This document shows positions 9,315-60,229 of a DNA stretch of 64,000 bases, piece after piece. Source of the DNA: Amphiscolops sp. MND2022 (lineage: Eukaryota); contig OZ076409.1 in assembly GCA_964187785.1 (NCBI GenBank), positions 63,242,001-63,306,000 on the forward strand. Direction: 5' to 3'. The notes beneath the pieces were generated by a model. It searched no databases and had not been told where the DNA came from. It saw only the letters and a list, made by a program, of their open reading frames with translations. Both the position numbers and the translations under genes were made by a program. How positions within the stretch are numbered: position 1 is the stretch's first letter; every line of letters begins with the position of its first letter.

Positions 9315-10039
9315 TTAAAACGTCAAGGATTAAATACTCAAAAGGCGACTTTTTTGTTTTTTTTTCTGCCCAGAAATATCAATTACTTCGGACATAAGGT
9401 CAAATGAAGTCAGAAATAGTGTTCTTTTTATTCGATTTTGTAAGGAAACGAAACATCAAAACAGATAAGATCGAACCTTCTCCTCCTCCTGGACTAAAAC
9501 GCAAATTAATTTGGATATAACGTTGAAAAAATAGGGCATAGCGTGCTTTGTTTGACTTTGGAAGGAAACTGATCATCGAAACGGATAAGATTGATCCTCT
9601 GCCTCCTCCCAGATCGAATATATTTGATCGAAAATAGCTCAGATTCGTCTTTGAAATTGATCCTTCACGAGAAACTAAATCAGTTTGTAGAAAAAGATAA
9701 CTATACTTGTTGGCTGTTTCAAGTTAACAAACAGGTCGATTGTACTGAAGTTTAAACGCGGGTGCGCATAATTCCGATCTCAATTGTTTCAGAACTTGGC
9801 AACGAATTAATTTTAAACTTGACAAAATAGTTTAAACTAAATTCAACCTGTTTCGATTAATTTATGACAATTAGGCGACCTCATTGCTATCATGGAGGGA
9901 TCAAATGCACTTTTGCTGATTCAGTTCATTTTTTAAGTTTTTGAGGGCTTGAATTTTTACGCTTTTGGTCTCGTTTGACTTCAATTTCTTGCTTTCGTTT
10001 TCGGCTGTTTTATGCGTGGAAAAACACGGTTAAATATTT

Positions 10040-10751
10040 TGTAACGTCAAGCTAACAGCTACATTCCAGAACCGGGACAATGCCCAGGTTGCCTTAACAA
10101 GAGACCAGTGTCTTACAACAACCTAAACATTAGTTTTTGGTCCCAAATGGTCTCTGTAGGGACTTTTCCAAGACGCCGAGGAGACTCCTCATATTAGAGC
10201 TCCGTGGCGACGTGCCGGCACACTCAAAGTCCGGACACGTCCCACAAGCACGTAAAAACGGTCCTAAAGGCTTCCTGCGATCCTACATACCTCCGAGGTC
10301 TGAAAACAGGGGTTTAGTCAGAGCACATCTCAATTAAGTGAATAACGTCTAAAATCAACACCTTCCAGGTTTACCATTAACAAACACCTGAAAATCTGCC
10401 AAAATACTACAAAATAGCACTGGGGAGGCATTCTGAACAGTTCTCAGCGAGTTTTGAGCTTTGGGTTCAACTCACGCAAAAATCGCACCTTCTTCTTCAT
10501 CTCTTTTCCGGCTCATTCTTGCGATTTTCCGGTTTTGATGGCACAACACTGGGGTATTGGCTAGTTTCTGCTTCTGAATATCTTCTTTCGCTGCTTTTCG
10601 GTCTTCTCTGTGGTCTGGGGGGTCTTTTTTTGCATTGTGTGTGCTTCCTTTTCGATTTCAACGACCTGCTAGGTCGGCCATTTTGATTCGCACACTTTTT
10701 GGGTATTCTTCGAATTTTTGAAATTTTTGACCTTGACTGGTGGACGTTACA
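10040..10751 (-). repeat. 3' LTR (712 bp)
   Basis: TGTAACGTC...GACGTTACA; matches 24718-25429 except T10415 vs C25093 by eye. Confidence 0.97.
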
Positions 10752-10759
10752 TCCTCCCC
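10752..10759 (-). promoter_or_regulatory. Polypurine tract (GGGGAGGA)
   Basis: Purine run on the minus strand directly abutting the 3' LTR. Confidence 0.8.
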
Positions 10760-11258
10760 GGGCCGTAGTTTGTCGTCCTCGGCAAACGAGAGAGAATGAT
10801 ACATACCCAGCGGGTCTTTTAGCAACATTATTTCAGTTTTTTTTTACTGCTCCAAATTTCTGCATCATTTTTACAGCACTTTTTTTGACATTAGCACTTT
10901 TTCATCTTTTGAATTTAGCACTTTTTCAACATTCTAGAGGATAAAAACATTTTCTCTAAAAGAAAACTCTTTCCACTCGTTTCAATCTAGTTAAAACTTC
11001 TTTTAAGGGTGGTAATGTACGCGGCATTCCAAGAATTGCAAGAAAGCATAGTTGCAGGAATTTCAATTGCAAATTTTTTTTTTGTTTTTGGGCAGGGAGG
11101 CACCAAGTTAGGACCCACCTACCAGGTAGGGTATTACAGAATGCACAAGAGCACTTGAATCGGGTGCGATGCCAAATAAATAGCTCCAATATAGAAACAC
11201 AACATGTAACACGCCAAAGAAAATCACCACGTGAGAGTCCATTCAGTCCATTGTGTTC

Positions 11259-11791
11259 TCATGTTTGTTTGGGATCCATTTCAGGCACTGTGCTCAACTT
11301 GAGTTCCAAGAGTTCACTCATCGTCCACTCAAGTGTATGAAGTGCAGAACAAGCATTTCTGAAGTCAACTATTTGGCTGGAACGGATACGTCTATTTAGA
11401 CGACCAATAAGTGATTGCCGCTGGAACCTGTTCCGTATGGGTTGCTTCGCACAAATCACAGGCTGAGTCAAATGTTCGGAGGCTGGTGGTTTGAAATTGA
11501 CCACATATTCGTCTCTTATCATGTACGGTCTCACCATTCCATAGTTGATAACAGCAGTTGGTCGACGGTGATCTAAGGACTATTATGTTGATTTCTTGTC
11601 GCTGTCAGTTGAATCCACAGTGCTCGGACCGCTCTCTCATCCAAGTGAAAGATTAATGCACTGTGTACAAACAAGAAATGATAGCATACTGCGTTGGTGT
11701 GTAGCACCTGGGGTATAATCTGAGGAAGTTGCGGGGATGTAACTGGGATTTATGATCTGATACCGTGCAGGTTCAGCGAAATAGGACACAA
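11259..11791 (-). pseudogene. Possible spliced accessory gene in the env position (exons 11764-11791, 11535-11660, 11259-11427), with one in-frame TAG
   Basis: GT-AG introns of 103 and 107 nt join the three segments in phase; TAG at 11573-11575; the last acceptor is weak. Confidence 0.3.
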
Positions 11792-11985
11792 CTGTAAAAC
11801 AAGCAGCAGTTGTAGATTAAAACCTTTTTTGAATTGGAGCGAGATACAATATGATCAGACACAGACGAGACAGATAGTAAAACAATCCGTATTAAGAACC
11901 AGTTCGCCAATTAGTTAAAACGACACATAAGCTTAAAAGAAGGCGAGTGGCCTTTCGAATGGCTATTTCTGAGTGCCACAGGCTT

Positions 11986-14900
11986 TCAATCAAGCTTGTG
12001 CTTTACGTGGCTAGGGTGTGCTTTGATTGATGCAATCGACACATACACCCTGTCATGGAGAACTATGTCAACGTCTGAGTCAATGAAGTGATCTCTCAAC
12101 ATAGAATACCAAGCTGGTAGTATGTTGATTGACCTTTCAGGATCATAGATAGGAAGGTGAACTCGGGTAATTTGAGCTTGGGCGAGCTTCTGCACCAGAT
12201 CTGTCAGGCACAGATGTAGCACATCATGCAACGTGGGATGTTTGTTGGAGGCTCTTGTGAATAGTAGAAACATGTCGTTATTCCATGGCGCATCTGGTGA
12301 TTTGGCGAGGTGTATGGCTTTTCCTACGGCTGGTCGTAGTTTGAAAATCTCTTCTTGGCCATATTCCCTGATGACGTAACGCGCCATTGCTGAGTATGAC
12401 AGAAGATCAGCCGGACAGCATATCACCACAGTACCACGTGCTTGCAGTATATCGGTTTCATCGTAGGATATCCATGGTAGATAGTTCGGCTTGACTTTCG
12501 GGTGCGTTGTCAACAGTTTTCCCGTGACGGTGCTTTGATTGTCTTGACTTGGTTTGAGATGATCTAGAATGGCTTTACGGTCTTGCCACACTGTTCTGCG
12601 CAAAGGCCTGTCTCCCAAATTCGTGCAAGACCAATCATGAACTACGGAGAGTGCTTCTAGCACGGTCACTGGGTTCTCAAACGTATACGTGTGTTTGTCC
12701 AGCAGGCGTATTTTGGCTTGGCGACAGAAAGTGATAGCTAGTAGCTGTAACCAATGTTGACTAAGGAATTTCCCGCGATAGATATCTGCTAGATGAAAAC
12801 AAAGTGTGTCCTCGAACTCTACAAGTGTACGCAAGTTCTCTAGACAAATCAATAGCGTTCCTGGGTTCACTGGTGATGTTTCGTCCAAGGAGGTGACTAA
12901 TAGCCACCAACCAGCCGTTGGGTGATACACATCTCCAGGGGGGGAGGTCACACCGTATTGTTGCCATAGCTTTTGCGCGGTGATACAGAGTACCATTGCT
13001 ACTTTCGTGTCTTCTGGCTCTATTTTTCCAAACACCATCGATGGTGGGAGCGGGGGAATGATAGCGGCCAACGTAAACTCTAATCCGCTCTTGTCGTGCC
13101 ACGTCCACTCTTTGAACCGATAGGTGGGACAGTCTGAGGGCGGTGTTCCTTGCATGGCCTTTAGCGTGGTTTCCAATGGTGGGACCACACCTGGTCCAAT
13201 GCTCGAGTACGTCTTTTCTATTGAAATTACAACATGATGTACTTGTGGAACATCCTGGTCCTTTGCGTGTATGGACCTGATCGTATGTTGTATATGGTCT
13301 TCGAATATTTCGGTGTCGGCTAAGTCAAGAGCAGGAGCGTCCACTCCCCGGGCCAATCGCTTGTCCGGTGTTCTCACTTCAACTAGGTTGACGCAACTAC
13401 AGTTGCGGGAACCACAGGTTCCACACCTGTATCGTGGTGCTCTGTTACGTCGTAGCTGATAAGGTGGGGCTTGTGAAGGGGTTGGTTGCTCCGCTTCTCG
13501 TTGCTCTGGCGATATGCTTTCCGCTATGTTGGGTAATGTCATTGCACGTTCCAAAGTTTGAGACTGAGCTCTGGCTCTTACTCGGCCTCTCGCTCGCGTG
13601 TATGGTCTGTGCGCTCTTGTAAGTGTTCTGCTTGATGGAGTGGTACTTCCTCTTCTACGACCTGGAGGTCTGCCTCTTGGTCTGCCTCTTCTAGTTGCAG
13701 TTCTCCCTGATGAGGGTAACGTTTCCATGCTTTGACCGGGTTCTTGAATTTCTCTGTCAGTTCCTTCTTGGGGTTCGGCTTCCTCGGCAAGTTCTAGTCT
13801 TACCGAGCTACCAGCTCGAGAACTGAACAGTGGAAAATTACTCAATGTATCAGTTAAAGCTGGGTTCGAGAGCAATAGTGCGGACGTTCCTGACGGTGAA
13901 GGTACCAGGCTTGGTGCTGGTTCAGGTAAGACTTCCTCTTGATCGGAATACAGTGGTTCTAGGTCATCAATATCGGGAAAAACCACTGGTTGCTGTACTT
14001 CTTCAATAGGTTGACCCATTGGTTCTCGGTCAGATTCCGACTCAGACGGATATCCAAAGTGACTGAACCGTCGACGTGGGATTCCTCGTTCCAAAGCAGA
14101 CTGGGCACGTGTCTGAATGGTGCGCGGTGGGACAGGCGCGGTTGGTTCCATTTCGAACGATGCCTCCGGCAGTTGTTCTGGAAGAAATGAGTCTCGTGAT
14201 ATATCTGACGTTATCTCCTCATTGCTTTCTTCCACGTATGGATCTGCGACGATGGCCACATTCTGGTCTAACCCGAAGGGTTGATGTGCTGCCCAATCCC
14301 ATGGCGCTGGCACATGCTTCTTCAGACGCTCAAAATGAACCTTTTGACCTGTATCCAAAACGTACAATCTTCCATCTTGTAACACATCCGTGACCTTGTG
14401 AGGTCCACGCCAGGCACGAAGAAGTTTGCGGGTACCGCCCTTGGGGATTATGTGGCAAAAAACCCAAACGGCATCACCCACGGCGTGAGCTTTTGCCTTC
14501 AAATGCCTGTCAAACTTCTGTTTTTGTCGTATTTGCGCCTGATGAGTGTTTCGGCGAACAAGCTCGTGGATTTCTTGTTGTCTGGCAAGTAGGTGCTCTA
14601 CAAATTCTTCTTTTGATTCGAACTCTCGCGCTGCGAATTCTGGGTATATAAACGAGAGCGGAATGGATTTTTCTGCGCCATGTTGGAGCATATACGGGGA
14701 AAATCCGGTTGTTGCATGTCTAGTCGAATTGTAGGCACCCAAGACTCCGTCTATGTGCTCATCCCAGTCAAGCATTCTGCGAGACGTGTAGACTCGGAGC
14801 AAGGTCAGTAACGTTCGGTTCTGGCGTTCCACTAAACCGTTGCCTCTCGGATGAGCTAGAGTAGATGTCACCTTGGTTACTTGCGAGGCTTTCATCAATT

Positions 14901-17900
14901 CTTGAGCAATTTCGGCAGTGAAATTGGTGGCGTTGTCAGACTGCATTCTGGCAGGAGTGCCATGTCTTGCGAACCATTTGTTTAGGATAATCCTTGCAGT
15001 CGTCTGTGCGTCATATTCATCGTGTGCACATGAGATTGCCTCTGCAAACTTGGTAAAATGGTCGATGATGACTAGCAATCCATTATTTCCTGACGTTGTC
15101 TTGCACAGTTTCAAATGGTCAAATTGCACTAGGTCATTAAAATTGCTGCTGTTAATACTCTGTAGGGGGTAACAGGGATTCCCAGCGGGATGTTTTGTCT
15201 GTTGGCACGTTAAGCAGTGCTTAATATGATTGACGACATCACGTTTGATGCCTGGCCAAGTGTGGCGCTCCTGGATTCTCGCCAACACTTTACCAACGCC
15301 TTGGTGTCCTGATTCATCGTGTGCTCTGTACAAAATCTCGTGCTGGTACAGCTGGGGCATGACGATCATACACGGTCGTACGTGCATCGCGCGTTGCTGC
15401 GGAATGTAGTTGACACACAAAATGTCATTTTGGTTCAGGAACAGCAAATCTTTCTTCTGATGGAAGTACCGTTTGGCAAAGTCTTGCACATCCTCGGGGA
15501 ACAAAGCGTCATCCAATGGCTCGTTCTTCATGAGCTTCTTCAGCGCTAGAAGGTGAACATCCCTGTTTTGAGCTAGATGTAGATCCTTTAATCCACGCAT
15601 TGTCGACTGATGCTCGTGAAGCTCAGTCCCAACTAGCCTAAGGACATCAGCTTGTTCTTGACACTGCATTGGCAATCTACGCAACGCTGGGTCGCATTTG
15701 GTGGTGTCAAGACGTGCCGCTGGCACTTTGGTTGTTACACTAAGGATACAATTTGGTCTGTCGTTTTCGGTTGATGTCGGAGTGGTTTCCCATTGCACCT
15801 GTGGATACCACGGTATGGAGCTCAAAGACTGATCTGAGGTTAGATCCTCCTTTGGTGACTTTTTCAAAATGTACAGCACAGGGAGTTGTGCCCGAGCTTC
15901 GGGTGGAAGCTCTGGATGGTTTGGGATGAATTTTCCATGTTTGTCGATATATGGCACAGTGGGGAGTTCTTCGTAGTCTTTCTGGGACATGAAGCTGAAT
16001 CCCTTGCTCACTTCTGGTAGAGCTTCCACAATCTTCTCCCGATGCACGTAGTCATTGGTCCTTTTGCTAAGACCGTCTGCATTTCTGTGTTGCGTGCGTG
16101 GACTGTGGATCGTCTTGAAGTGATATTGGTCGAGGCGCGCAATCCAGCGCCCAATCATGGCCTGATCCATTGAATATGTCTTCAGCCACGAGAGAGCCTG
16201 GTTGTCCACGCGCAGCGTGAATTCCCGACCTGCAAGGTAGGAATGAAACTTCTCGATAAAATAGAATACTGCATACATTTCCAGCTTCGGGGCGCCATAA
16301 TTCATTTGTGTTCGAGTCAGTGACTTGCTGCCATAAACGATGGGACGAAGAATGGTTTTCCCATTGTATTGTTGTTCTTGGTGCAGTATGCCGGCTATAG
16401 CAACTGCACTGGCATCTGTGTCCAAAACAAAACGTCCTTCTTCGTTTGGCGCTGCCAAAGCTGTGGCGTCGGCTAATGCCTGTTTCACTGAATCAAACGC
16501 TTCTTGATGTTTTTCTTTCCAGTAGAAGTGTTGGTTCTTCCTTAACAACTCCTGCATAGGTTGCACCTTAGCAGCGTGAAAAGGAATGAAGTCCCGGTAG
16601 TAGTTCGCAAATCCGAGGAAGCTTTGAAGTTCTTCTTTATTTCTCGGGGGCATCCATTCTTTGATTTTGCTAACAGCAGCCGGGTCTGGTTTTATGCCTT
16701 CGGCTGAGACTACTCTTCCGAGGTATTTGGTTTCGGTGCGCATAAAATCACACTTCTCGGCTCGCATCTTGAAACCTGCCTCTCTGAGACATTCGAACAC
16801 TTCTCTGATCCTCTCCAAGTGATCTTCAATAGTTTCGGTGGCAATTACTATGTCGTCAATGTATGCCATGACAACACTTCCATGGCGTTGTTGAATCTTC
16901 TGAAGAGCTCTGGTGATCGATCGCTGAAATGTGGCCGATGCATTGCAAAGCCCAAAGGGCATTCGTCGCCATTCGAACAGTCCAAGCTCGCACGCGAACG
17001 CGGTCTTTCTGCGGTCACGTTTCTTCAGTGGAATCTGCCAAAAGGCCCACGCTAAGTCGATGCTCCTGAAGATTTTTGCATTCGCGATCCTTGAGAGACT
17101 TTCATCAATCCTGGGCAGTGGGAACGCGTCTTTCACTGTTACATCGTTCAGCGGGCGGAAGTCACAGCAAAAGCGAAGCTCTCCTGATTTCTTTTTCACC
17201 ATGACAATCCCACTAGCCCACGGCGAGTAAGAGGGTTGAATCAAACCTAGAGCTAACAAATTCTGCACTTCTTGGTTTGCTTTGGCTGCTTTGTCGGGAG
17301 ACATGCGCCTTGCCCCTTCTCTGTGTGGTATAGCCTCCGGCTCTAGCTCTATGCGATGTTTTGCAATTCTGCATCGTCCTATGTCGGATTTATTTTTCAT
17401 GAACAGGTCATCGTATTCACTCAAAACGCTCGCTAATTTGTCTCTCGCCTCTTCCCCCCATGAAGAAAGGACGGAAGAGAGATCAGGGCCTGGGATTGGC
17501 TTCAGCAATTGTGGATCTGTCCTTCTGCGTTTTTCATTTTCCGATAGTCCAATCTCTGACGGCTCAGTTGAAGACAAGAAGTTCTGTGCAAAGGAACTAA
17601 ACTCTGAACTCGTGTCCAAATCTAAGTCTCTGTGCACTTGATTCACAAATTCCGCTGAAAGCTTCGAAGCTTCACGACTGTCTTGAATGGGTACGGAGTT
17701 GAACACAAAGGTGGTGAGCACCGCTTTCCCAATTACGGTTTGTTCCTTGATTCTTACCCCTTCTTTAGCAGTTTGGTTTTTTAGGGCTAAGAAATCTACA
17801 CCGTCTTCTCCCACGGAGGTTAGTGTATCTTCAGAAACAAATACTGCATTGGACTTAACATTACACGGGTTCACCATTACATTTCGGAAATGAAACACGT

Positions 17901-20900
17901 TAGGTTGCTGCGTTATGATCTTCGCGCGCACAACTTTTCGTTCGAAAGGCCCTAAAGTAACCTCCTCGGCAGAAACAACGAATGATGGCTCTTGGTCACT
18001 GACCTCGTGAACTGCTTTGAAGATCCTAGGCGTTTCCGGGTCACGAATGGTTACTTTCATGGCTGCCAGGTCCACCAACACGTTGTATGTGCGCAAGAAG
18101 TTTCGGCCCAAGAGAAAGTCCTCTGAACCAATGTGGTCGGCTATGACTACGAAATTGGTCTTCAGCGTATGTCCGCCGAGCTGAAAGCTTACATCCTCGG
18201 CTATGCCAACGGTGGTGATGCTTTTGCCATTGGCAGCGAAAAGTTCAATGTCACATGGTGATAGACTCAGCTCATGCTTGGAAGCGATTTTCTTGTACGC
18301 GCTCAATGAGAGGATGGAGACCCCCGAACCGGTGTCTATCATGCCGAAGAGTGGTATCGGCTTTTGCAAAGGAGTTCCGAATGCTACCATTAGTGAGGCT
18401 CGCTCATCAATCTGGGCCTCTCCATGTGCATCCTGCATTCCGATGTTATAACAGCGCAGTTCTTGCGTGCCCAAATACAGGCCTTGTGGAAAGTGTCCTT
18501 CCAGGACAACAATTGCATCGAATTTCATGTCAACCCCATCAACCGTGATCGCTATGGGGACTGGTGCGATTGTCTTGACCTTCTGTATTGGGGCTAGCTT
18601 AGTCTCGTCACTTCTGGTGAAATGTGGTAAGGGTCTTGAAGCTATGGTAAGATTGGTGTTGCGACAAAGTTCTTCTTTCAATTGAGCCAATGTAAGGTTG
18701 GGACGTGCTTTTTGTTCTGCTGATAATAACAGGTGAATGGATATTAGCGTCTCAGTACAATTAGGTGCTGGGGCTTCAAGCGTCGTCAGGATTTGTTTTT
18801 CACCGCAAGTTACGACCACAGGACGTGAGGGGCCTCCTTCTTCAGAAGTCGAGATCACCCGTATTTGATCATCAGTATCAACAAAGTCCGCGGAATTCGT
18901 GACTGGGGCGTACCACGCCGCTTTCACTTGTTCTTCTGTTGCTGCACTTTCAGGCACCATGCATTCGGACGCAGTGTTGCCCGTACAATCAAAATTGACG
19001 CGTAATGTGGGCGGTCCTTGTGCTGATGGTGCCGCATGCACAACGTTGTTATTCATGCCATGAGGGTTAGAAGGACTAGTCCATTCACAAGCTGGGTTCG
19101 TTCGACATGAAGTAACTAGTTGTTGCACTGATTTGCGTGCGCGATCTTTCAAAGGGCAATCGGCAATGAAATGTGACGGGTCGCCACAATTGAAACACGC
19201 TCTAGATGGCTTCGGTGGTTGCTGTCGAACAGCCACTGGCTGTGGAGGTAGCTGCCAATTAGGCGCTTGAGGAGCCGCTGCCAGTATCGGGTTTTGTTGT
19301 CTTGCAAGTAAAGACTGTTGCTGTTGCTGAGGCGCTGGATAGTTCTCCGAGCGGATAGGGCCGCGCATGTGCAAGTATTGTTGTACCGTGAACCGTAGTG
19401 CTTCCACTGTTGGAGGAGTATCCACGTACTGTTCTTGTGCGTACATGAGTGCGAGATTTCGCTTCAACTCAAAGCTGCGTACCCCTTCGATGAACCTCTG
19501 CATGATTTCGTAGCGCCTTACAGTAACTTCTTCGTTAGGAAAACCTTGGCTGCGCAAACCTTCAAGAGCGTCAAGATACTGCATGTGGTCTTCGTCGTCG
19601 GACTGATTGCGTGTACGGAACTGCTGTTGTATTTGGAACTTGCTAGATCCCGTTCCAAATCGACGCGCTAGTAGCGCAATGACTTTTTCATCCGTGTCGC
19701 GCTCAGCCTCGGACTTGTTCGTAATATAGTCTCGTGCCTCATTCTCTAGGAATTCAACGATGGTCCATGCTCTGTCCAGTTGAGTATCCTTTGCGTGTGC
19801 TTTCTCCAAATAACGTTTCATGAGCATTAGCCAACCATCTATTATCCCGTCGCGCGCACCGCGGTATTTCGTTGGTATATTTTTGGCTTCTTTTGCTGCT
19901 AGCAATGGTTCCAAACTTTTGGACATCGCGCTTGTTATTGCTTCGGCTAACGCTTGTCCATGTATGGTGTTCGGTGTATTGCCTTTTGCAGCCTCTTCTA
20001 CTGTTTCTGGATTCAAATTTCTTTGATCGCACTTCGTCCCACTCTGGCACTGAACTACTTCTCTATTGGTGGGTTGCTGAATTGAAGATTCATTAGTGGA
20101 TGGTACGTTCGCAGGGTTTAGTGCCACCGGCACAGGTGAAGGACGACTTGGTACCGTCGCCATTACAGCTTTTACACCTAGGGTTAAATCTTGAACTGTA
20201 GTCATGAGGTCCACCATGCGCTTGTCGACATCTATTTCTCTGCGATGCATCGTTTCGGACATGAGCGTCAGTCTTTCATCGGCTTGTTGATCTCTTTGCG
20301 CCATTATCGCCGTCATTTCCGATATGCGCTGTTCAGTTAGACCCTTGACTGATGCCATTGTCGTTTCCATTTTGTCCTGATTGATGCGCCCTTCCGTCTT
20401 CATTTCAAGCACTCCTCTTCTCAGTTCCTCCACTTCTTTCATTAAAACTTCAGCTCGCTGAGCATGGTCACTATTCTCTTGGGATAGTTCTGCCTGGACT
20501 TGTTTCAACTGTGCCATGCTCCGTCCCAAGTCTTCGTTTATGGCTTCAGTTTCCTTGATGCCTCTAGTAATGGTAGAACTTGAAGATGCAACGCTACCTG
20601 AGCCTGAATCTTGGGGAGTTGCCGTGCATTCTAGTCGGAAGGTGCTAAGATCTAGCAGAGGTGGTGTGGTAAAGGTATAGTTCTGGTTCACCTCTTTTGC
20701 AGTCTCCCGCTTTCCCAGCTGGTTTCCTGAAGGAGTACTTGCGGTGTCAGCAACAGCGTTTCTACTAGCAGCAAACACTGGAACTCCGGAACCCAGCGGG
20801 TCCACACCCAAACTCACTTGTGGTGTAATCTCTCCTAAGGCCATGCCTGCATTCTTGTCCTCTACACTTTTGCTGATGTTCGAGCTGGTAGCTTGTTCTC

Positions 20901-21330
20901 CATTCGAGTTTGGCCATTCTCCCCAAGCAATCGCAGAGTTATTCATGGGAGGCCAGACGCTACCACAGTTCATGGCAGTGCCATTTACAAAATTAGCGCT
21001 ATCCGAAGATGTTCGAGAGGAGTTTAGTTGGCTGAAATATGCCATTTGCGAGTTTTGCTCGGCATTTGACATGTTATCTGACATGACGTCGTATAAAAAC
21101 ATGTTCGCAATTATGTCATCCGCTGCTATCTCAGCACGTGCACTAAGCCCAGACAACTCCTCTACCTCGCTTGCAAATGGATTCGTAACATGGAAGCTAC
21201 TAGACTGCCTATTCGATTCATTCAAAGACTTCAGATGCTCAATCTCGCCTGAGTTCATGCTCGATGGACTGCTCGGACTACTGTTTCCTCTGGTAACCCA
21301 GCTTTTGAACAGGGCTTTGGCTTTTCTCAT
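11986..21330 (-). CDS. gag-pol: Gag-Pol polyprotein (3114 aa): coiled coil, capsid-like region, CCHC knuckle, protease, RT, RNase H, integrase, long C-terminal tail
   Basis: CFNCGDPSHFIADC (19156-19197); IDTGSG (DTG at 18328-18336); PFGLCNA and YIDD (16852-16863); LDTDAS..KLEM..VDN..NADGLS RNase H; HDESGH..CLTC zinc finger; QFDH / SDNA / VERQNR DDE triad; WRGPH (GPY/F). Confidence 0.97.
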   Translation of the reverse strand: MRKAKALFKSWVTRGNSSPSSPSSMNSGEIEHLKSLNESNRQSSSFHVTNPFASEVEELSGLSARAEIAADDIIANMFLYDVMSDNMSNAEQNSQMAYFSQLNSSRTSSDSANFVNGTAMNCGSVWPPMNNSAIAWGEWPNSNGEQATSSNISKSVEDKNAGMALGEITPQVSLGVDPLGSGVPVFAASRNAVADTASTPSGNQLGKRETAKEVNQNYTFTTPPLLDLSTFRLECTATPQDSGSGSVASSSSTITRGIKETEAINEDLGRSMAQLKQVQAELSQENSDHAQRAEVLMKEVEELRRGVLEMKTEGRINQDKMETTMASVKGLTEQRISEMTAIMAQRDQQADERLTLMSETMHRREIDVDKRMVDLMTTVQDLTLGVKAVMATVPSRPSPVPVALNPANVPSTNESSIQQPTNREVVQCQSGTKCDQRNLNPETVEEAAKGNTPNTIHGQALAEAITSAMSKSLEPLLAAKEAKNIPTKYRGARDGIIDGWLMLMKRYLEKAHAKDTQLDRAWTIVEFLENEARDYITNKSEAERDTDEKVIALLARRFGTGSSKFQIQQQFRTRNQSDDEDHMQYLDALEGLRSQGFPNEEVTVRRYEIMQRFIEGVRSFELKRNLALMYAQEQYVDTPPTVEALRFTVQQYLHMRGPIRSENYPAPQQQQQSLLARQQNPILAAAPQAPNWQLPPQPVAVRQQPPKPSRACFNCGDPSHFIADCPLKDRARKSVQQLVTSCRTNPACEWTSPSNPHGMNNNVVHAAPSAQGPPTLRVNFDCTGNTASECMVPESAATEEQVKAAWYAPVTNSADFVDTDDQIRVISTSEEGGPSRPVVVTCGEKQILTTLEAPAPNCTETLISIHLLLSAEQKARPNLTLAQLKEELCRNTNLTIASRPLPHFTRSDETKLAPIQKVKTIAPVPIAITVDGVDMKFDAIVVLEGHFPQGLYLGTQELRCYNIGMQDAHGEAQIDERASLMVAFGTPLQKPIPLFGMIDTGSGVSILSLSAYKKIASKHELSLSPCDIELFAANGKSITTVGIAEDVSFQLGGHTLKTNFVVIADHIGSEDFLLGRNFLRTYNVLVDLAAMKVTIRDPETPRIFKAVHEVSDQEPSFVVSAEEVTLGPFERKVVRAKIITQQPNVFHFRNVMVNPCNVKSNAVFVSEDTLTSVGEDGVDFLALKNQTAKEGVRIKEQTVIGKAVLTTFVFNSVPIQDSREASKLSAEFVNQVHRDLDLDTSSEFSSFAQNFLSSTEPSEIGLSENEKRRRTDPQLLKPIPGPDLSSVLSSWGEEARDKLASVLSEYDDLFMKNKSDIGRCRIAKHRIELEPEAIPHREGARRMSPDKAAKANQEVQNLLALGLIQPSYSPWASGIVMVKKKSGELRFCCDFRPLNDVTVKDAFPLPRIDESLSRIANAKIFRSIDLAWAFWQIPLKKRDRRKTAFACELGLFEWRRMPFGLCNASATFQRSITRALQKIQQRHGSVVMAYIDDIVIATETIEDHLERIREVFECLREAGFKMRAEKCDFMRTETKYLGRVVSAEGIKPDPAAVSKIKEWMPPRNKEELQSFLGFANYYRDFIPFHAAKVQPMQELLRKNQHFYWKEKHQEAFDSVKQALADATALAAPNEEGRFVLDTDASAVAIAGILHQEQQYNGKTILRPIVYGSKSLTRTQMNYGAPKLEMYAVFYFIEKFHSYLAGREFTLRVDNQALSWLKTYSMDQAMIGRWIARLDQYHFKTIHSPRTQHRNADGLSKRTNDYVHREKIVEALPEVSKGFSFMSQKDYEELPTVPYIDKHGKFIPNHPELPPEARAQLPVLYILKKSPKEDLTSDQSLSSIPWYPQVQWETTPTSTENDRPNCILSVTTKVPAARLDTTKCDPALRRLPMQCQEQADVLRLVGTELHEHQSTMRGLKDLHLAQNRDVHLLALKKLMKNEPLDDALFPEDVQDFAKRYFHQKKDLLFLNQNDILCVNYIPQQRAMHVRPCMIVMPQLYQHEILYRAHDESGHQGVGKVLARIQERHTWPGIKRDVVNHIKHCLTCQQTKHPAGNPCYPLQSINSSNFNDLVQFDHLKLCKTTSGNNGLLVIIDHFTKFAEAISCAHDEYDAQTTARIILNKWFARHGTPARMQSDNATNFTAEIAQELMKASQVTKVTSTLAHPRGNGLVERQNRTLLTLLRVYTSRRMLDWDEHIDGVLGAYNSTRHATTGFSPYMLQHGAEKSIPLSFIYPEFAAREFESKEEFVEHLLARQQEIHELVRRNTHQAQIRQKQKFDRHLKAKAHAVGDAVWVFCHIIPKGGTRKLLRAWRGPHKVTDVLQDGRLYVLDTGQKVHFERLKKHVPAPWDWAAHQPFGLDQNVAIVADPYVEESNEEITSDISRDSFLPEQLPEASFEMEPTAPVPPRTIQTRAQSALERGIPRRRFSHFGYPSESESDREPMGQPIEEVQQPVVFPDIDDLEPLYSDQEEVLPEPAPSLVPSPSGTSALLLSNPALTDTLSNFPLFSSRAGSSVRLELAEEAEPQEGTDREIQEPGQSMETLPSSGRTATRRGRPRGRPPGRRRGSTTPSSRTLTRAHRPYTRARGRVRARAQSQTLERAMTLPNIAESISPEQREAEQPTPSQAPPYQLRRNRAPRYRCGTCGSRNCSCVNLVEVRTPDKRLARGVDAPALDLADTEIFEDHIQHTIRSIHAKDQDVPQVHHVVISIEKTYSSIGPGVVPPLETTLKAMQGTPPSDCPTYRFKEWTWHDKSGLEFTLAAIIPPLPPSMVFGKIEPEDTKVAMVLCITAQKLWQQYGVTSPPGDVYHPTAGWWLLVTSLDETSPVNPGTLLICLENLRTLVEFEDTLCFHLADIYRGKFLSQHWLQLLAITFCRQAKIRLLDKHTYTFENPVTVLEALSVVHDWSCTNLGDRPLRRTVWQDRKAILDHLKPSQDNQSTVTGKLLTTHPKVKPNYLPWISYDETDILQARGTVVICCPADLLSYSAMARYVIREYGQEEIFKLRPAVGKAIHLAKSPDAPWNNDMFLLFTRASNKHPTLHDVLHLCLTDLVQKLAQAQITRVHLPIYDPERSINILPAWYSMLRDHFIDSDVDIVLHDRVYVSIASIKAHPSHVKHKLD

Positions 21331-23496
21331 TACTCACTTCTTGCTTCTTTGTGGAAAGTCAAATACAAGGCAAACAAAATTTGGGAGTTTTGACGTACTC
21401 CTTCACTATTAAGCAAATTAAACTATGGGACCACTACGTTCTGGGGCTTGCAGCTCGCAATTGCCTGCTATGTTCTAAGTCGAATGAAGCTGGCTTACAA
21501 ACTACAGTCTCCAGATTACATGTACTGGTGCTAATCACCACTAATCAGAACAGAAATGTTTGCTACCCCACTAACTGGAGATAGTTATCCTACGAGAAGT
21601 TAAAGATGAGTTTTTTTTAAAATTTTTTTTGAAGTACTTTAGAGGTTACTCACACTAAACTACGCTTTACCCAGCCACAGGCTATGCGGTTGGAATGAAC
21701 AGAAAGGTTTTGGCACGCTAACAGAGCTTTATGGAGATTTATTCAAGAAATCTCCTCACTTTATTCTGTGAGCGCACTCTATGTTACTCGCACTGCCCTT
21801 TATGAGGAGAGCACAAGTAGGGTTACTACAAATAGGGAACTCGGGGATAGACCTTGGGGGTGAGTAGGTGCTAGGAGACTAACAAACAAGAGAGTTTTAC
21901 TAATCTGAAGATTACAAGATCAATGGAGACACGGTTCTTCACACTTTCAGATGCTACTGTACTTAATGTACTTTGGCGAGACGCAGCGCGTCCTAAGTCT
22001 AAGTCTCGTGGGAAACTCCTAAATGCGTTCTGATTCTTACACTATGCTTCGCATTCGAAGTATGCGTGGCTACAACTGTCAGTTCGCACTTAGGTGACTC
22101 TGGTGGCTGTTAACAGAGAAAACACGATTTTGGTGTTTTTCGCTTCTACGTCTCGTTGACAATCTTTCCACGAACCCAAGATCTTAGGGTTGAGCTAGCT
22201 CTATACTGACTGCCTCAACAAGACGTGCTATGGGTGCCTGGTGTAGAACTAGGGTCGTTGGAGCACTCACTTGCGACTATACCTACGAAAAATACGTAAT
22301 TTTTCGCAAAATTTCTCAAAATCAACAACTTTTTCGCCAATATGCACGCCTGGAACAGGTGGAAATCACTTCTAGAGCTAGTAGCGACCTGAAAATTTAA
22401 CACGGTATACTACTGTGGCCAAATCGTGGGAAAATCACCATCGATTGCGCTAAAATTAATTGCACGTGACTTGGGGTCGTTCAACAATGTTATTGCAAAA
22501 TTTTACAATGTTGTGAAATTCACACAAGTCTGTCAAACTCGCCTTCTAGGCTTCCTAGCTACCTGAAATTTTGTATGCGAGCGTGAATTATGCCCACGTA
22601 ACAGAAAAATAAGTTAGCAGGGTGCCCAGGTCAATATTCCGCAATCCGAGTCGACAAAACTATGATGTACCCTGTATGTCACTTTCAGGGGTTAAAATTC
22701 ACAAAATTGTCAATTTCTCTAAGTTGGGCAGTAGCAAGCTGCTCAAAATGCACAAATCGTCGGGATCGAGTGCCGTATGCACGAAAATGCAAGAATTTTA
22801 GTGCTGGGATACCTGCAAGGTATTGCACTATGCTCAACTATAATTCAATTTTTTCGACAATTCCATACGGTTTTTGAGCAAAATTGCGGCTAAGATTTCT
22901 CAATCACTAGTAATGGTAGCGCTACGAAAATTACACCACTAACGTAACTTTTTGCGGTCTACACGATGGTGCAATCCGTTTTGGGCTACTCCTGCTAGGA
23001 GAGATTTCGACCTGTCTTGGGTACACTACTCCAGTGTTCCGAAAATGTCGCAAAAATAACACGTTTTTGGCTATTTCTCGGCAACTACTGGTTGGAATCA
23101 CTCGCGGTTTTCTGCGTTTGCAACGTTATGCTTTATACTAACAGAAAATAGGCAAGCGAAACCTGGCAGGTTCCAAATAATGTCTCTCAAAATAAACTTC
23201 AAGTTACACCTTTGACACTCTGGGAACAATGTGAAAAGTACGTATTTTCCCTAGGAACTTTTTATTTCTTGGTTCCCAGATGTTCGGGATAGTTCTAAAC
23301 GTAACGTAATAAGGTGTAATAACTTTATTCACGGGACTGGGGTTGTTTCAATTATTAGTTTTGATGTTATAACTCTCAGGTCTATGGGGTCCTCTAGTCA
23401 TGTCTATGTATAACAAAAGAAAGTAAAGGGTTAAACTATCAATTTATATTGGGGAAGGGTGAAAAACGTCTTGGCAGTAGTGTTTTGTACCACCAA

Positions 23497-24105
23497 GCTC
23501 GGGAACAATGTTTTTGAGCAGCTCTGAAAGCTTTGGAACAAACGCTCAAGGCTTCGCCCTCACCACATTTGGTCTGTTAGGCCAATTTTGGGTCTTCACA
23601 AACAAAAATCGCTAATTTTTTTGTTTTCAAGTAAATTAGCGGGTTAAAAAATTTTGTTCCTAGCCTGATAGGTCTAGTGGAACGTTTTTATTGTATTGCC
23701 ACTGGCCGTACCCTCTTCTGAAAAATTTTGGCTTTTGTAACTAATGATGACCGATAAATGGCTATTGTATTAAAATGAAAATTGGCTGGTAACTTATTCA
23801 ATATTTCGTTGGAGGGCCTCAAAAAACTGTTTGACGATAACGTTTTCTGATATCTGGCTCGGGAAAAAGAATTTTAGGTGGCTCGCAATGCTCTGAGAAA
23901 AGCGAACAGGGCTTCGCCCTCACCAAATTTTGTCTCAAAGTCCAAATTTGACGATTTCAAACAAAAATCGCCAAATTTTTTGATGTTTTTGGTAATTTAG
24001 CTAAACAAATCGTTCTGTTCCTGACCTGACAGGTCTGATAGAACGTTTTTATCGCATTCCCACTGGCCGTACCCTCTTCTGAAAAATTTTGACTTTTGAA
24101 AGTGA
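23497..24105. repeat. Diverged direct duplication (period 360 bp, ~250 bp alignable) inside the retrotransposon leader
   Basis: Shared blocks GGCTTCGCCCTCACCA, AAACAAAAATCGC and CACTGGCCGTACCCTCTTCTGAAAAATTTTG at a 360-bp offset. Confidence 0.85.
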
Positions 24106-24683
24106 CAATGTCAAGAATCGAGCTATATCAGGTGTTATGGCTAACTCGCTACAATTTTTCAGAAAACGATCGGACTACCCAGTGGGTATTTTTCTCAGTT
24201 CTTACTAATGAGGGTACGCCTGGGAATGGGCTTTTAAGGCCACAAAAACAAAAGGGGACAAAGTAACCTAGCCGATTTGGTGCAATCAAGTGGGTGAGGG
24301 GAGTGGTGTTGAACAGTTCGTCTCCACTTCATCTACGCTGATGGGGTCAGGACTGTTACTCTGCGTGTTCCCCGTCCCAATGCATTGCAAATAGACTGAA
24401 ATAGAGCTACAAAACCCTTTAAGACAAAATCCGGTTAAGCCGGATGGTTAATCTCGGTAAATTGAAACGGTGTTGAAACGGTACTCTGTCCAAAATCGGT
24501 TATTTCACCTTCCAGACCCCGGAAACACGCAGGAAACGCAGGAAAAACACTAACACAAGGCCCACAGGGCTAGAATAAGGCAATAAAAACAATCTAGGAC
24601 TCTCCAACAAGTTTTCCTAGATCCGGACCTAGCAGGGCCGGAAAGCAGGAAAAACTCCAATTATGGCGAAAAGATGGAAAAAA

Positions 24684-24701
24684 GTCCCTTGTGGGGCGCC
24701 A
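24684..24701 (-). promoter_or_regulatory. Primer-binding site, tRNA-Lys(UUU)-like (TGGCGCCCCACAAGGGAC)
   Basis: 15/18 identity to the tRNA-Lys3 PBS TGGCGCCCGAACAGGGAC as I recall it; 16 nt inside the 5' LTR end. Confidence 0.75.
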
Positions 24702-24717
24702 TAAAAACTATCCTAGA

Positions 24718-25429
24718 TGTAACGTCAAGCTAACAGCTACATTCCAGAACCGGGACAATGCCCAGGTTGCCTTAACAAGAGACCAGTGTCTTACAACAAC
24801 CTAAACATTAGTTTTTGGTCCCAAATGGTCTCTGTAGGGACTTTTCCAAGACGCCGAGGAGACTCCTCATATTAGAGCTCCGTGGCGACGTGCCGGCACA
24901 CTCAAAGTCCGGACACGTCCCACAAGCACGTAAAAACGGTCCTAAAGGCTTCCTGCGATCCTACATACCTCCGAGGTCTGAAAACAGGGGTTTAGTCAGA
25001 GCACATCTCAATTAAGTGAATAACGTCTAAAATCAACACCTTCCAGGTTTACCATTAACAAACACCTGAAAATCTGCCAAAATACTACAAAACAGCACTG
25101 GGGAGGCATTCTGAACAGTTCTCAGCGAGTTTTGAGCTTTGGGTTCAACTCACGCAAAAATCGCACCTTCTTCTTCATCTCTTTTCCGGCTCATTCTTGC
25201 GATTTTCCGGTTTTGATGGCACAACACTGGGGTATTGGCTAGTTTCTGCTTCTGAATATCTTCTTTCGCTGCTTTTCGGTCTTCTCTGTGGTCTGGGGGG
25301 TCTTTTTTTGCATTGTGTGTGCTTCCTTTTCGATTTCAACGACCTGCTAGGTCGGCCATTTTGATTCGCACACTTTTTGGGTATTCTTCGAATTTTTGAA
25401 ATTTTTGACCTTGACTGGTGGACGTTACA
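24718..25429 (-). repeat. 5' LTR (712 bp)
   Basis: Direct repeat of 10040-10751. Confidence 0.97.
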
Positions 25430-25629
25430 TTTAAAGCAAAATGCATATTTTTTGTCAATCGTTTCAGGTGGCAAAAGATGCTATTCCTCCACTGTCTGAC
25501 TTTCGTTCATCAAAAGTAATGCCTCCGCTTTTGTATTTTTCTTCGTTTTCTTCTCGTAGGGATTTTTTGTTTCATTAGTTCAATTGTTTTCTTCTTTCCC
25601 AGTATTTTTTTCATTTTGGCCCGTAGTTT

Positions 25630-28066: not shown

Positions 28067-28080
28067 TGTTATATTCTAAG

Positions 28081-28799
28081 GATTACCAGAAATTTCGTCG
28101 TCGGAAATTTCGTCGTCGGAAATTTCGTCGTCGGAAATTTCGTCGTCAGAAATTTCGTTGCCAGAAATTTCGTCGTCGGAAATTTAGTCGTCGGAAATTT
28201 CGTCGTCAGAAATTTCGTCGTCGGAACTTACGCTCTATAAAACGTTGCATTTTATCTAAGCTATTAGGAATTGTCTAATGGTATTGATGTCTTAAAATTT
28301 ATCGAGTCTTGATAATTATCTAAATAATTATCGGTAATTGTGTAATTATTGCTAATATTGACTTTTAGTAATGGTTTTAACCGAAAAAGTTTCGGACCAT
28401 GTTCCTTATTCCTCCCACCCCAGATAAACAATGTTTCTAAGATTGAAATTGGGTGGCAATATTCATTTATCTGAGACGCATTTGATAATTTAAGTGTGGG
28501 GTGAAATGAATGTGGGGTGAAATGATATGGGGTGAAATGATATGGGGTGAAATGATATGGGGTGGAATGATATGGGGTGAAATGATCGTGGGGTGAAATG
28601 ATACTAAACCGTTAAGATCTCTTATTTTAATAATTAAATAATTGAATAATTCAAATATGCCCTTTTCGCGAACGCTGTTAATTTTTATCAATACGACGAA
28701 ATTTCCGACGACGAAATTTCTGACGACGAAATTTCTGTATTTGCTAATACGACGAAATTTCTGACGACGAAATTTCTGACGACGAAATTTCCGCCTTAC
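28081..28799 (+). mobile_element. Foldback MITE with 15-bp GAAATTTCGTCGTCG arrays and 8-bp TSD
   Basis: About 9 units on the left, inverted units at 28693-28792; TSD ATTCTAAG at 28073-28080 and 28800-28807. Confidence 0.88.
28496..28610. repeat. Seven ~15-bp TGGGGTGAAATGATA units; orphan arm of another foldback family nested in 28081-28799
   Basis: Tandem array ending ATACTAAACC; no matching inverted arm found. Confidence 0.7.
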
Positions 28800-52419: not shown

Positions 52420-53436
52420 ACAACAGGTTGGCTTAACCGGCTTTTGTTGTAAAGGGTTTTGCAGATTCATTTCAAATAATTGTTAATGTAATGAATCTGT
52501 CAGGACAATTGGTGAAGGCCCCAGTGGTTTCAGACGAGATCGTGAGCAGGGTGGAGACACTACTACTTTTCGAACCTCCTCTGACTGGCCACAATACCCC
52601 CAGAATCGTCTTGGTTACTTTGTTCCTTTTGCGTTTACTGGCCAATAAGGCTTTTCACCAGGCGTACCCGCAATAAGACTAACCGAGAAAATAACCAGCG
52701 GGTATTCTGATCATTTTCTGAAAAATTAGAGCGAGCTAATCACAACAATATATAGCTCGATTTTCGACTTGGTGACTTTAGAAAACCAAAAATTTTCAGA
52801 AGAGGGTACGGTAAAAACGTTCCATTAGACCTATCAGGTCAGTAACAGAAACATTTGCTTCGCTAAAATGCGAAAACACAACTTTAGCGATTTTTGTTGC
52901 AAAAGCACCGAATTTGGCCACTAAGACCAAATTTGGTGAGGGCGAAGCATTGGGTATTTCCTCCAGAGCTTTTTGAGTAGCCCAAAAACCTTTACCCAAG
53001 CTTGGTAGTACAAAAAACTACTGCCAAAACGTTTTCTAGTTTTCCCTCATTATAAATTGAAACTTTATTAGTGCTTTTTTTTGATATACATAGCATTGAG
53101 TAGAGGACGCCATAGACCTGAGGGATATAACATCAAAAATAAAATTTGAATCAGCCCCACTCCCCTGAATAAAGTTGTAACACCTTCTTACACTGCTGTT
53201 AAAACAACCTGAAACGCCTGAGAACAAATAAATAAGACATTCTCAGTGGAAATACGTATTTTCAGTAACATTCCGGGAGTGTAAAAAGTGGAATCTGAAA
53301 TTTTTTTGAAATACCTTAAATGGAACCTGCCAGGTTTTGCTTGCCTAAAATCTGTTAATATAGAGTAAAACGTTGCAAACGCATGAAATCGGGAGTGTTT
53401 CCAATCAGTGGTTGCCGAGAAATAGCCAAAAACGAG
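52420..53436 (+). mobile_element. Leader fragment of a sister Gypsy family (inverted homologue of ~23060-24450)
   Basis: Collinear reverse-complement matches: GGCTTAACCGG, AATTTTCAGAAGAGGGTACGG, TGGTGAGGGCGAAGC, CCATAGACCTGAG, GGAACCTGCCAGGTTT, GTTGCCGAGAAATAGCCAAAAACG. Confidence 0.85.
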
Positions 53437-53951
53437 TTTTCGTTTGTGCTCTTTGAGTTTGTTGCTGTTGAGCACGTATTTGCAACTTTTGGATCTAATT
53501 TTCGAACCTAATTTTACAGTCATTTTTCAAGCCAATGAAATGTTCAAGTTCGGGTACTGTAAAGTTTGGCCATCGTAGAAACACTGTAGATTATCATGTG
53601 TTTTATTCAAAACTGGTTTCACACTGCTATGAGTCACAAACATAGTGCTAGATGTCTTAATCATGACTGACGTCAGTCATTACTCAGGATTCGAATTGAA
53701 TTTTGGCGAAAGTTTTTCACAACTTCCCTAGATAATTTATACTCGTTAATGATTATGAGAAAGTGTTCTGAACACAGCTCAGACAGCTTTTTTTTCACTG
53801 TACTTTTTCTCGAAAATATAAATTCGGGTAGTAATTATATTTGTGCTCAGGATCCGAATATTTAGCACTCGTTAATTGCGACATTAATGCATACAACATT
53901 AATTATTTCTAAATGGCATCACAACTTGAAGCAGCACTATTTAGAGGTCCT

Positions 53952-59515: not shown

Positions 59516-59542
59516 GTTAATTTTTTTGATCTAATCATGGCA

Positions 59543-60128
<586 letters not shown>

Positions 60129-60229
60129 GCCAAATTTCAAATTGCAAAAATAAATCACGGCGTCTTCCCTTTCAATTTTAAACAAATTTATTTGAATTGA
60201 AAAGCAAGATGTGATTTTTCAGCACTGAG

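Follow-up and report, generated by a model that had tools for sequence, protein, structure and literature searches.

Integrase accessory domains decide where retroelements land, and few kinds of them are known. The vestigial chromodomain of Ty3, which packs directly on the integrase C-terminal domain (CTD), tethers the element to TFIIIB in a non-canonical way (passages of 10.1101/2021.07.27.453949), and the integrase tails of Ty5 and MoMLV, which bind chromatin proteins, are tethering precedents that also lie C-terminal to the integrase (passages of PMC4176367). The same source describes LEDGF/p75 as an NLS and two AT-hooks combined with folded domains. Macrodomain capture by LTR retroelements is already known as well: fish epsilon-like endogenous retroviruses carry macro-domain ORFs (cited in passages of PMC4977317). 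In human TARG1 (OARD1, C6orf130), a member with DarG and Poa1p of the ALC1-type clade, D20 and P118/Y150 serve adenine and the GxG loop serves pyrophosphate, while K84 is the catalytic nucleophile and D125 acts in release; TARG1-like hydrolases share the pattern TKx(30,35)Px[IL]GxGxD (passages of PMC6397177). Finally, the SUD Mac2/Mac3 domains of nsp3 are tandem macro folds that have lost ADP-ribose binding (passages of PMC2674928 and PMC10221186).

The window, meaning the whole 64,000-nucleotide stretch of DNA that was analysed, contains a Ty3/Gypsy element (Table 1), assigned by the presence of LTRs, the order PR-RT-RH-IN and a GPY/F-type motif. The LTRs align over 713 bp at 99.86% in a self-BLAST, with one difference in 713, so the insertion is recent and the element young. 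Its gag-pol ORF holds zf-CCHC, aspartic protease, RT, RNase H and integrase domains (Pfam; Integrase_H2C2 E 3e-16, rve E 2.5e-6), followed by the tail that concerns us here. A first-pass annotation of this DNA had counted about 750 aa after the GPY/F motif. The ORF and all the peptides that it quoted are present, but the motif, which reads GPH (14398-14406, residue 2310), lies about 800 aa before the stop. Past residue 2205 no Pfam family matches the ORF, leaving aside one chance match at E 0.34, and Chromo has no match anywhere in the ORF at E<=1, although vestigial chromodomains can escape profile detection (passages of 10.1101/2021.07.27.453949). The annotation had also likened the position of the tail to that of a chromodomain. 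The likeness is a loose one: the tail is C-terminal to the integrase, but about 415 aa, with a long low-complexity linker among them, separate unit A from the CTD.

Table 1. Features of the element, with positions in the window; the folds named are those of predicted models.
Feature	Position	Strand	Remarks
3' LTR	10040..10751	-	self-BLAST
gag-pol ORF, single	11986..21333	-	3115 aa stop to stop, uninterrupted
Macro unit B, full TARG1-class fold	12046..12486	-	retains the adenine Asp; Arg at the Lys84 site, D-x-E in place of GxG, Ser/Pro at the Asp125 site
Segment between the units, with a strand, two helices, a flexible loop and a strand	12487..12693	-	AlphaFold model
Macro unit A, shortened TARG1-class fold	12694..13053	-	lacks the loop 1 region, the adenine Asp and the catalytic residues
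Folded scaffold preceding unit A, with three strands and one helix	13054..13251	-	pLDDT 81-92
C-x2-C-x4-C-x-C motif, conserved	13393..13425	-	67-75% identity to distant lineage; pLDDT low
Low-complexity linker, ~260 aa	13474..14256	-	28-34% identity to distant lineage
Two RGRP cores, taken to be AT-hook-like, in basic segment	13666..13689	-	no Pfam match
Integrase: H2C2, core, GPY/F-type motif, CTD	14299..15357	-	CTD end by inspection
Reverse transcriptase core (RVT_1)	16717..17199	-	Pfam E 3.7e-35
5' LTR	24718..25429	-	712 bp, ends TGTAAC...GTTACA; self-BLAST

Both units of the tail find their top fold match in TARG1 (PDB 4J5S, 4J5R, 2LGR). The AlphaFold model of the tail, built from a 108-row alignment, has a mean pLDDT of 79 and mostly exceeds 85 over the two units. 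TARG1 chains take ranks 1-8 in a Foldseek search with this model, through unit B (best E 4.6e-8, TM 0.83 by target), and VIA aligns 138 residues of unit B (model 329-474) to TARG1 at Z 16.2 and rmsd 2.6, ahead of DarG (Z 15.0) and Poa1p (Z 12.2). TARG1 is also the top PDB match of sequence profiles of the tail: against 177,635 PDB sequences, the family alignments A1, A2 and A3 retrieved TARG1 (five sequences) alone at E<=10, with E 0.11, 0.009 and 2.5e-4, and alignment A4 did so more weakly (E 0.49), together with one unrelated match at 1.3. Every TARG1 match runs through unit B, including that of A3, whose rows span both units. Identity to TARG1 is 13-15%. The ESM Atlas returned look-alikes of unit B at 0.90-0.92; in one set, 14% of the members carry PF01661 (Macro), which provides a lead.

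Because unit B filled the match list of the whole tail, unit A was folded with its flanks and without B (pLDDT 88.5, pTM 0.84). TARG1 came first in VIA (Z 12.2, rmsd 3.3, 118 residues aligned), followed by Q8A8B0 (11.6), DarG (11.2) and Poa1p (10.1), with the top three within about 1 Z; 114-118 residues aligned to TARG1, DarG and Poa1p, and the first non-macro entry stood at Z 7.9. The best Foldseek E against TARG1 was 5e-5. Unit A had no sequence-level PDB match and no usable match in the ESM Atlas, and Pfam gave no match for the tail or either unit and no macro family in six relatives. The first-pass proposal of tandem, degenerate macro units closest to TARG1, DarG and Poa1p is thus backed by the predicted models and the family profiles. 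Its extent for unit A needs trimming, however: the unit starts near 13053 and not at 13110, and the strand before it belongs to the flanking scaffold.

The residue assignments in unit B rest on a HMMER alignment to TARG1, so that its cleft positions derive from aligned sequence and not from model coordinates. In this alignment the adenine-binding D20 is kept as D340 in 77 of 84 rows, T83 and P118 (as P440) are kept too, and H472 sits at Y150. The remaining sites differ from TARG1. The K84 site is Arg in 73 of 76 rows (Lys in two, Gly in one), the GxG phosphate loop reads D-x-E in 59/70 rows, the D125 site is Ser or Pro in the ten commonest loop variants, and the loop-1 glycines are replaced by Tyr, Asn, Gln or His and by Ala. 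The first-pass annotation was right that the Gly-rich loops and the catalytic Lys and Asp are gone, but the Lys site of unit B is a conserved Arg and was not simply lost. These replacements rank among the most conserved positions of the unit (weighted frequencies of 0.97 for D443, 0.94 for R406, 0.92 for R446 and 0.81 for E445, with H438 also within 0.81-0.97), and the cleft therefore looks rebuilt, or remodelled, rather than eroded by decay. Its polar residues D340, D355, S360, R406, H438, D443, E445, R446 and H472-D473-R474 align with cleft-lining positions of TARG1. The net charge of unit B is -4, against a family median of -1.

Unit A departs further from TARG1. The global alignment of the two units shows a gap of about 23 residues in A that takes in the surroundings of loop 1 and of the second helix, and A has no counterpart of D20; its K84 site is mostly Ser or Ala (TS in 46 and TA in 17 of 76 rows), its GxG loop reads D-x-Y/F in 72/84 rows and its D125 site is Gly. 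Its net charge is -2, which is also the family median. A profile alignment of A against B, run on trimmed columns (A3 and A4 rows span both units), scored 31.1 (E 1.5e-4, with a probability of just 52%), compared with 14.9 +/- 2.6 (maximum 23.5) for 40 block-shuffles and 18.5 for the reversed profile. The units therefore resemble each other weakly, yet beyond the controls. The alignment pairs D229-x-x-R232 with D443-x-x-R446, and from this shared loop we infer that disarming of the phosphate loop probably preceded duplication of the units.

None of the 417 proteins that we collected matches the TARG1-like hydrolase pattern. The tail units, as modelled and aligned here, have the TARG1-class fold but fall outside the TARG1 hydrolases by the published definition, and they occur as two copies inside a retrotransposon polyprotein. 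Acidic side chains in the phosphate-binding loop make canonical ADP-ribose binding unlikely, and canonical hydrolysis is unlikely too. Like SUD, the tail is a tandem of macro folds in a polyprotein, with ADP-ribose binding lost in SUD and predicted to be lost here. SUD differs in that its fold match is much weaker (Z 7.2-7.7), it binds G-quadruplexes via lysines whereas the tail units are not basic by net charge, and it follows an active Mac1, while this element has no active copy. Unlike the single macro-domain ORFs of the fish endogenous retroviruses, the domains described here are tandem, disarmed and invisible to Pfam. What appears to be new is the tandem, disarmed pair of predicted TARG1-class macrodomains on an integrase tail. 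Among titles and abstracts, with most subscription journals and Repbase outside the coverage, we found no description of tandem or disarmed macrodomains in LTR retrotransposons; the word 'macro' has no match in PMC13524379, occurs only as 'macrophage' in PMC6338049 and, in 12 of 17 passages of 10.1101/2021.11.30.470311, is confined to those on macroH2A.

The tail is widespread in its family. With its last 414 aa as the query, 20 longer and 132 similar-length proteins were found (of 2480 and 2086 candidates, respectively). At E<=0.001 there were 262 tail representatives, 150 of them listed, whose identities range between 99% and about 29%. Of 2746 candidates, a profile of the 494-aa tail identified 62 long proteins, each of which has integrase Pfam domains; 55 of them cover at least 97% of the tail in frame with the integrase, and seven cover 27-66%. 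The matches listed for the longer, the similar-length and these 62 proteins are ENA records. In a quick tree of the 32 near-complete tails among the 108 rows, several lineages are deep and well supported, and each of them has the two units. Judged by these alignments, the pair is retained even where tail identity drops to ~30%. Against the distant lineage P0411, identity is 82% in RT, 70% in RNase H, 67% in the integrase and 75% in the Cys motif, and falls to 34% in the linker, 42% in unit A, 36% in the inter-unit segment and 42% in unit B. Over the comparisons with the distant lineage, the tail units are at 41-45% (38-42% for B), the linker at 28-34% and the integrase zinc finger and core at 65-67%. 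In each pair with scores for both, conservation was higher in unit A than in the linker. On such comparisons the tail is retained in sister lineages and looks constrained at the protein level, in contrast to the absence that would have spoken against the first-pass proposal. No loci of the window tail were found in metagenome or viral contigs. In a short contig (L001), the last ~260 bases (793-1056) give a 264-base match to the terminal part of the tail in a relative. The remainder of this contig has a high AT content and does not resemble the element, and the contig is possibly chimeric.

Among 53 young copies, shared polymorphic sites number 20/147 in unit B, 3/120 in unit A, 3/353 in the integrase, 24/261 in the linker and 0/24 in the Cys motif. 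Unit B is 86-100% identical to the window copy while the integrase is 98-99% identical. Fisher tests, which are descriptive here as sites are not independent, give p 0.002 for B against A and p 0.19 for B against the linker. In unit B (12046-12486), and also in the spacer before unit A (13054-13390), two haplotypes occur in mosaic combinations among the young copies, with the integrase and unit A nearly invariant.

Between the integrase and the macro units lie several further segments, which the first-pass annotation had passed over. The basic segment (residues 2541-2650) has a net charge of +20, and its two RGRP cores are what we take to be AT-hook-like; of the 122 proteins that span the region, a redundant set counted without a chance control, 121 have GRP no more than 130 aa before the Cys motif. 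The four-cysteine motif is a probable zinc site. No Pfam family matches the basic segment or the Cys motif. Unit A appears to be wrapped by a folded scaffold made up of 13054-13251 and part of 12487-12693. For 13054-13251, which was folded jointly with unit A and lies outside the ranges aligned with macro structures, no fold match was seen, and the idea that the flanking scaffold is itself repeated was rejected (profile E 0.52). Within the linker, which otherwise aligns poorly, a short conserved island reading GTSA-x-LL-x-NP-x-LT (~13830-13890, minus strand) is kept also in the distant relatives P0021 and P0411 and is a candidate linear motif or protease site.

The explanation that we tentatively favour, at somewhat short of even confidence, is that the macro units and the basic, AT-hook-like/Cys4 segment act as a tether between the integration complex and either chromatin or a protein of the host. 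An ancestor would have captured a TARG1-like hydrolase, whose phosphate loop was remodelled to D-x-x-R before the domain was duplicated. The tail would stay joined to the integrase after protease processing, with the basic segment supplying nuclear import and DNA contact, and the neutral-to-acidic macro units would bind a protein partner through unit B, in its remodelled cleft, and so bias where the element inserts. With its sequence of integrase, flexible linker, basic segment and reader-derived folded domains, the protein resembles a built-in tether. Ty3 and the chromoviruses likewise possess a captured reader fold after the integrase, though the fold differs, the Ty3 domain packs on the CTD where ~415 aa intervene here, and the tethering role here is proposed. 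In favour of a tether, 55 of the 62 long relatives keep the tail in the integrase frame, the macro units are better conserved than the linker across the distant lineage, and the +20 of the basic segment stands beside neutral-to-acidic macro units; a targeting module, as suggested at first pass, is plausible and is strengthened by the upstream AT-hook-like and Cys4 motifs. Against it, the element's protease could cut the long linker and separate the tail from the integrase, the AT-hook label has no Pfam match, a pure protein tether need not retain the adenine Asp kept in unit B (77/84), and the excess of polymorphism in B over A among young copies fits host conflict at least as well. A fuller version, which we hold more loosely still, is that a captured ADP-ribose eraser evolved into a duplicated pseudo-enzyme whose new acidic cleft is conserved and which, with the AT-hook-like and putative zinc motifs, forms a self-contained LEDGF-like integration tether. 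It would then join the chromodomain as another, new class of targeting module on integrase, and would close a series whose first members are active TARG1-like domains in other retroelements.

The adenine half-pocket of unit B keeps a nucleotide or RNA reader in play. Unit B might read an adenine-containing ligand non-canonically (poly(A) or other RNA, an adenosine nucleotide, or the adenine end of ADP-ribose or PAR) in RNA packaging, translation or the sensing of PARP-marked chromatin, with unit A as its structural partner. The adenine side of B is kept or conservatively changed (D340 for D20, P440 for P118, H472 at Y150), poly(A) binding is described for GDAP2-like macrodomains (passages of PMC6397177), and the SUD of SARS is a model for a tandem macrodomain that gave up ADP-ribose (passages of PMC2674928 and PMC10221186). 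Yet the D-x-E loop (59/70) and the replaced loop-1 glycines should repel and block phosphates, and both units are neutral to acidic while SUD binding depends on surface lysines (passages of PMC2674928), so we consider this reading rather unlikely. Unlikely, too, is that the tail serves as a counter-defence protein, possibly cut free, which would act as a pseudo-enzyme decoy, binding and neutralising a factor with which the host silences elements or ADP-ribosylates targets. The reshuffling of two B haplotypes against near-identical integrases (20/147 sites, p 0.002 versus A) speaks for it, as does the part that ADP-ribosylation takes in L1 silencing (passages of PMC4695847), but polymorphism in B is not significantly above that of the linker (24/261, p 0.19), recombination by itself yields mosaics, and soaking up ADP-ribose would require of a decoy the very pocket that is remodelled here. 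The decoy against ADP-ribose defence put forward at first pass is weakened in particular, because the pyrophosphate-loop glycines of B are both replaced by conserved acidic residues, and neither loop 1 nor the adenine Asp is left in A.

It is improbable that the tandem fold is purely structural, multimerising the integrase or helping to pack Pol into the particle, even though the scaffold, unit A and the helices that follow fold as one rigid unit (pTM 0.84), unit A is nearly invariant among young copies and the SUD core is a homodimer (passages of PMC2674928). The conserved cleft residues of B would be left unexplained. Moreover, ordinary Gypsy integrases work without such a tail. A new chemistry in unit B, with Arg in place of Lys84, Asp/Glu from the remodelled loop and His438, would account for the retention of R406, H438, D443, E445 and R446 even in the ~30% relatives P0197 and P0211 (with Lys at 406 in P0211); we regard it as very improbable, given that the TARG1 mechanism requires a Lys nucleophile and Asp125 (passages of PMC6397177), that no glycine-rich loop is available for holding a substrate and that the loop-1 cysteines are not kept in P0197 and P0211. 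That the tail is a neutral, functionless relic is scarcely credible: seven of the 62 long relatives do cover just 27-66% of it, but the frame is open, blocks of fixed residues extend across lineages down to ~30% identity, and unit A exceeds the linker in conservation in every scored pair.

A tandem pseudo-macrodomain across a deep family adds a candidate kind of integrase accessory domain. It would also be a natural example of how an enzyme fold becomes a binding module, one that parallels coronavirus Mac2/Mac3 but is of the TARG1 class. With many intact, near-identical family copies, selection and insertion preference can be tested from the host genome, and the two ~140-aa domains are open to direct assay. 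Identifying a partner would reveal either a new integration tether or a defence of the host against which retrotransposons act.

Some minor features of the element should also be recorded. Between the ORF stop and the 3' LTR (10752-11985, 1.2 kb) the largest ORF is at most 126 aa, with no env-like gene. Although the LTRs are near-identical, there is no clean 4-6 bp target-site duplication at 10030-10039 and 25430-25440, where only TTT matches in AT-rich flanks. A primer-binding-site-like motif, TGGCGCCCC, presumably tRNA-Lys-like, lies at 24684-24717 on the minus strand and begins 16 bases inside the 5' LTR end without adjoining it. The leader (21334-24717) is very long, at 3.4 kb, and holds an internal duplication of ~245 bp at 75% identity (23497-23740 and 23857-24101). 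It also matches 52604-53438 on the opposite strand at 74-76%, so that perhaps a second repeat is nested in the leader or related to it. Elsewhere in the window, a 15-nt tandem array (28068-28262) and a long (GA)n tract (59540-60130) are ordinary repeats.
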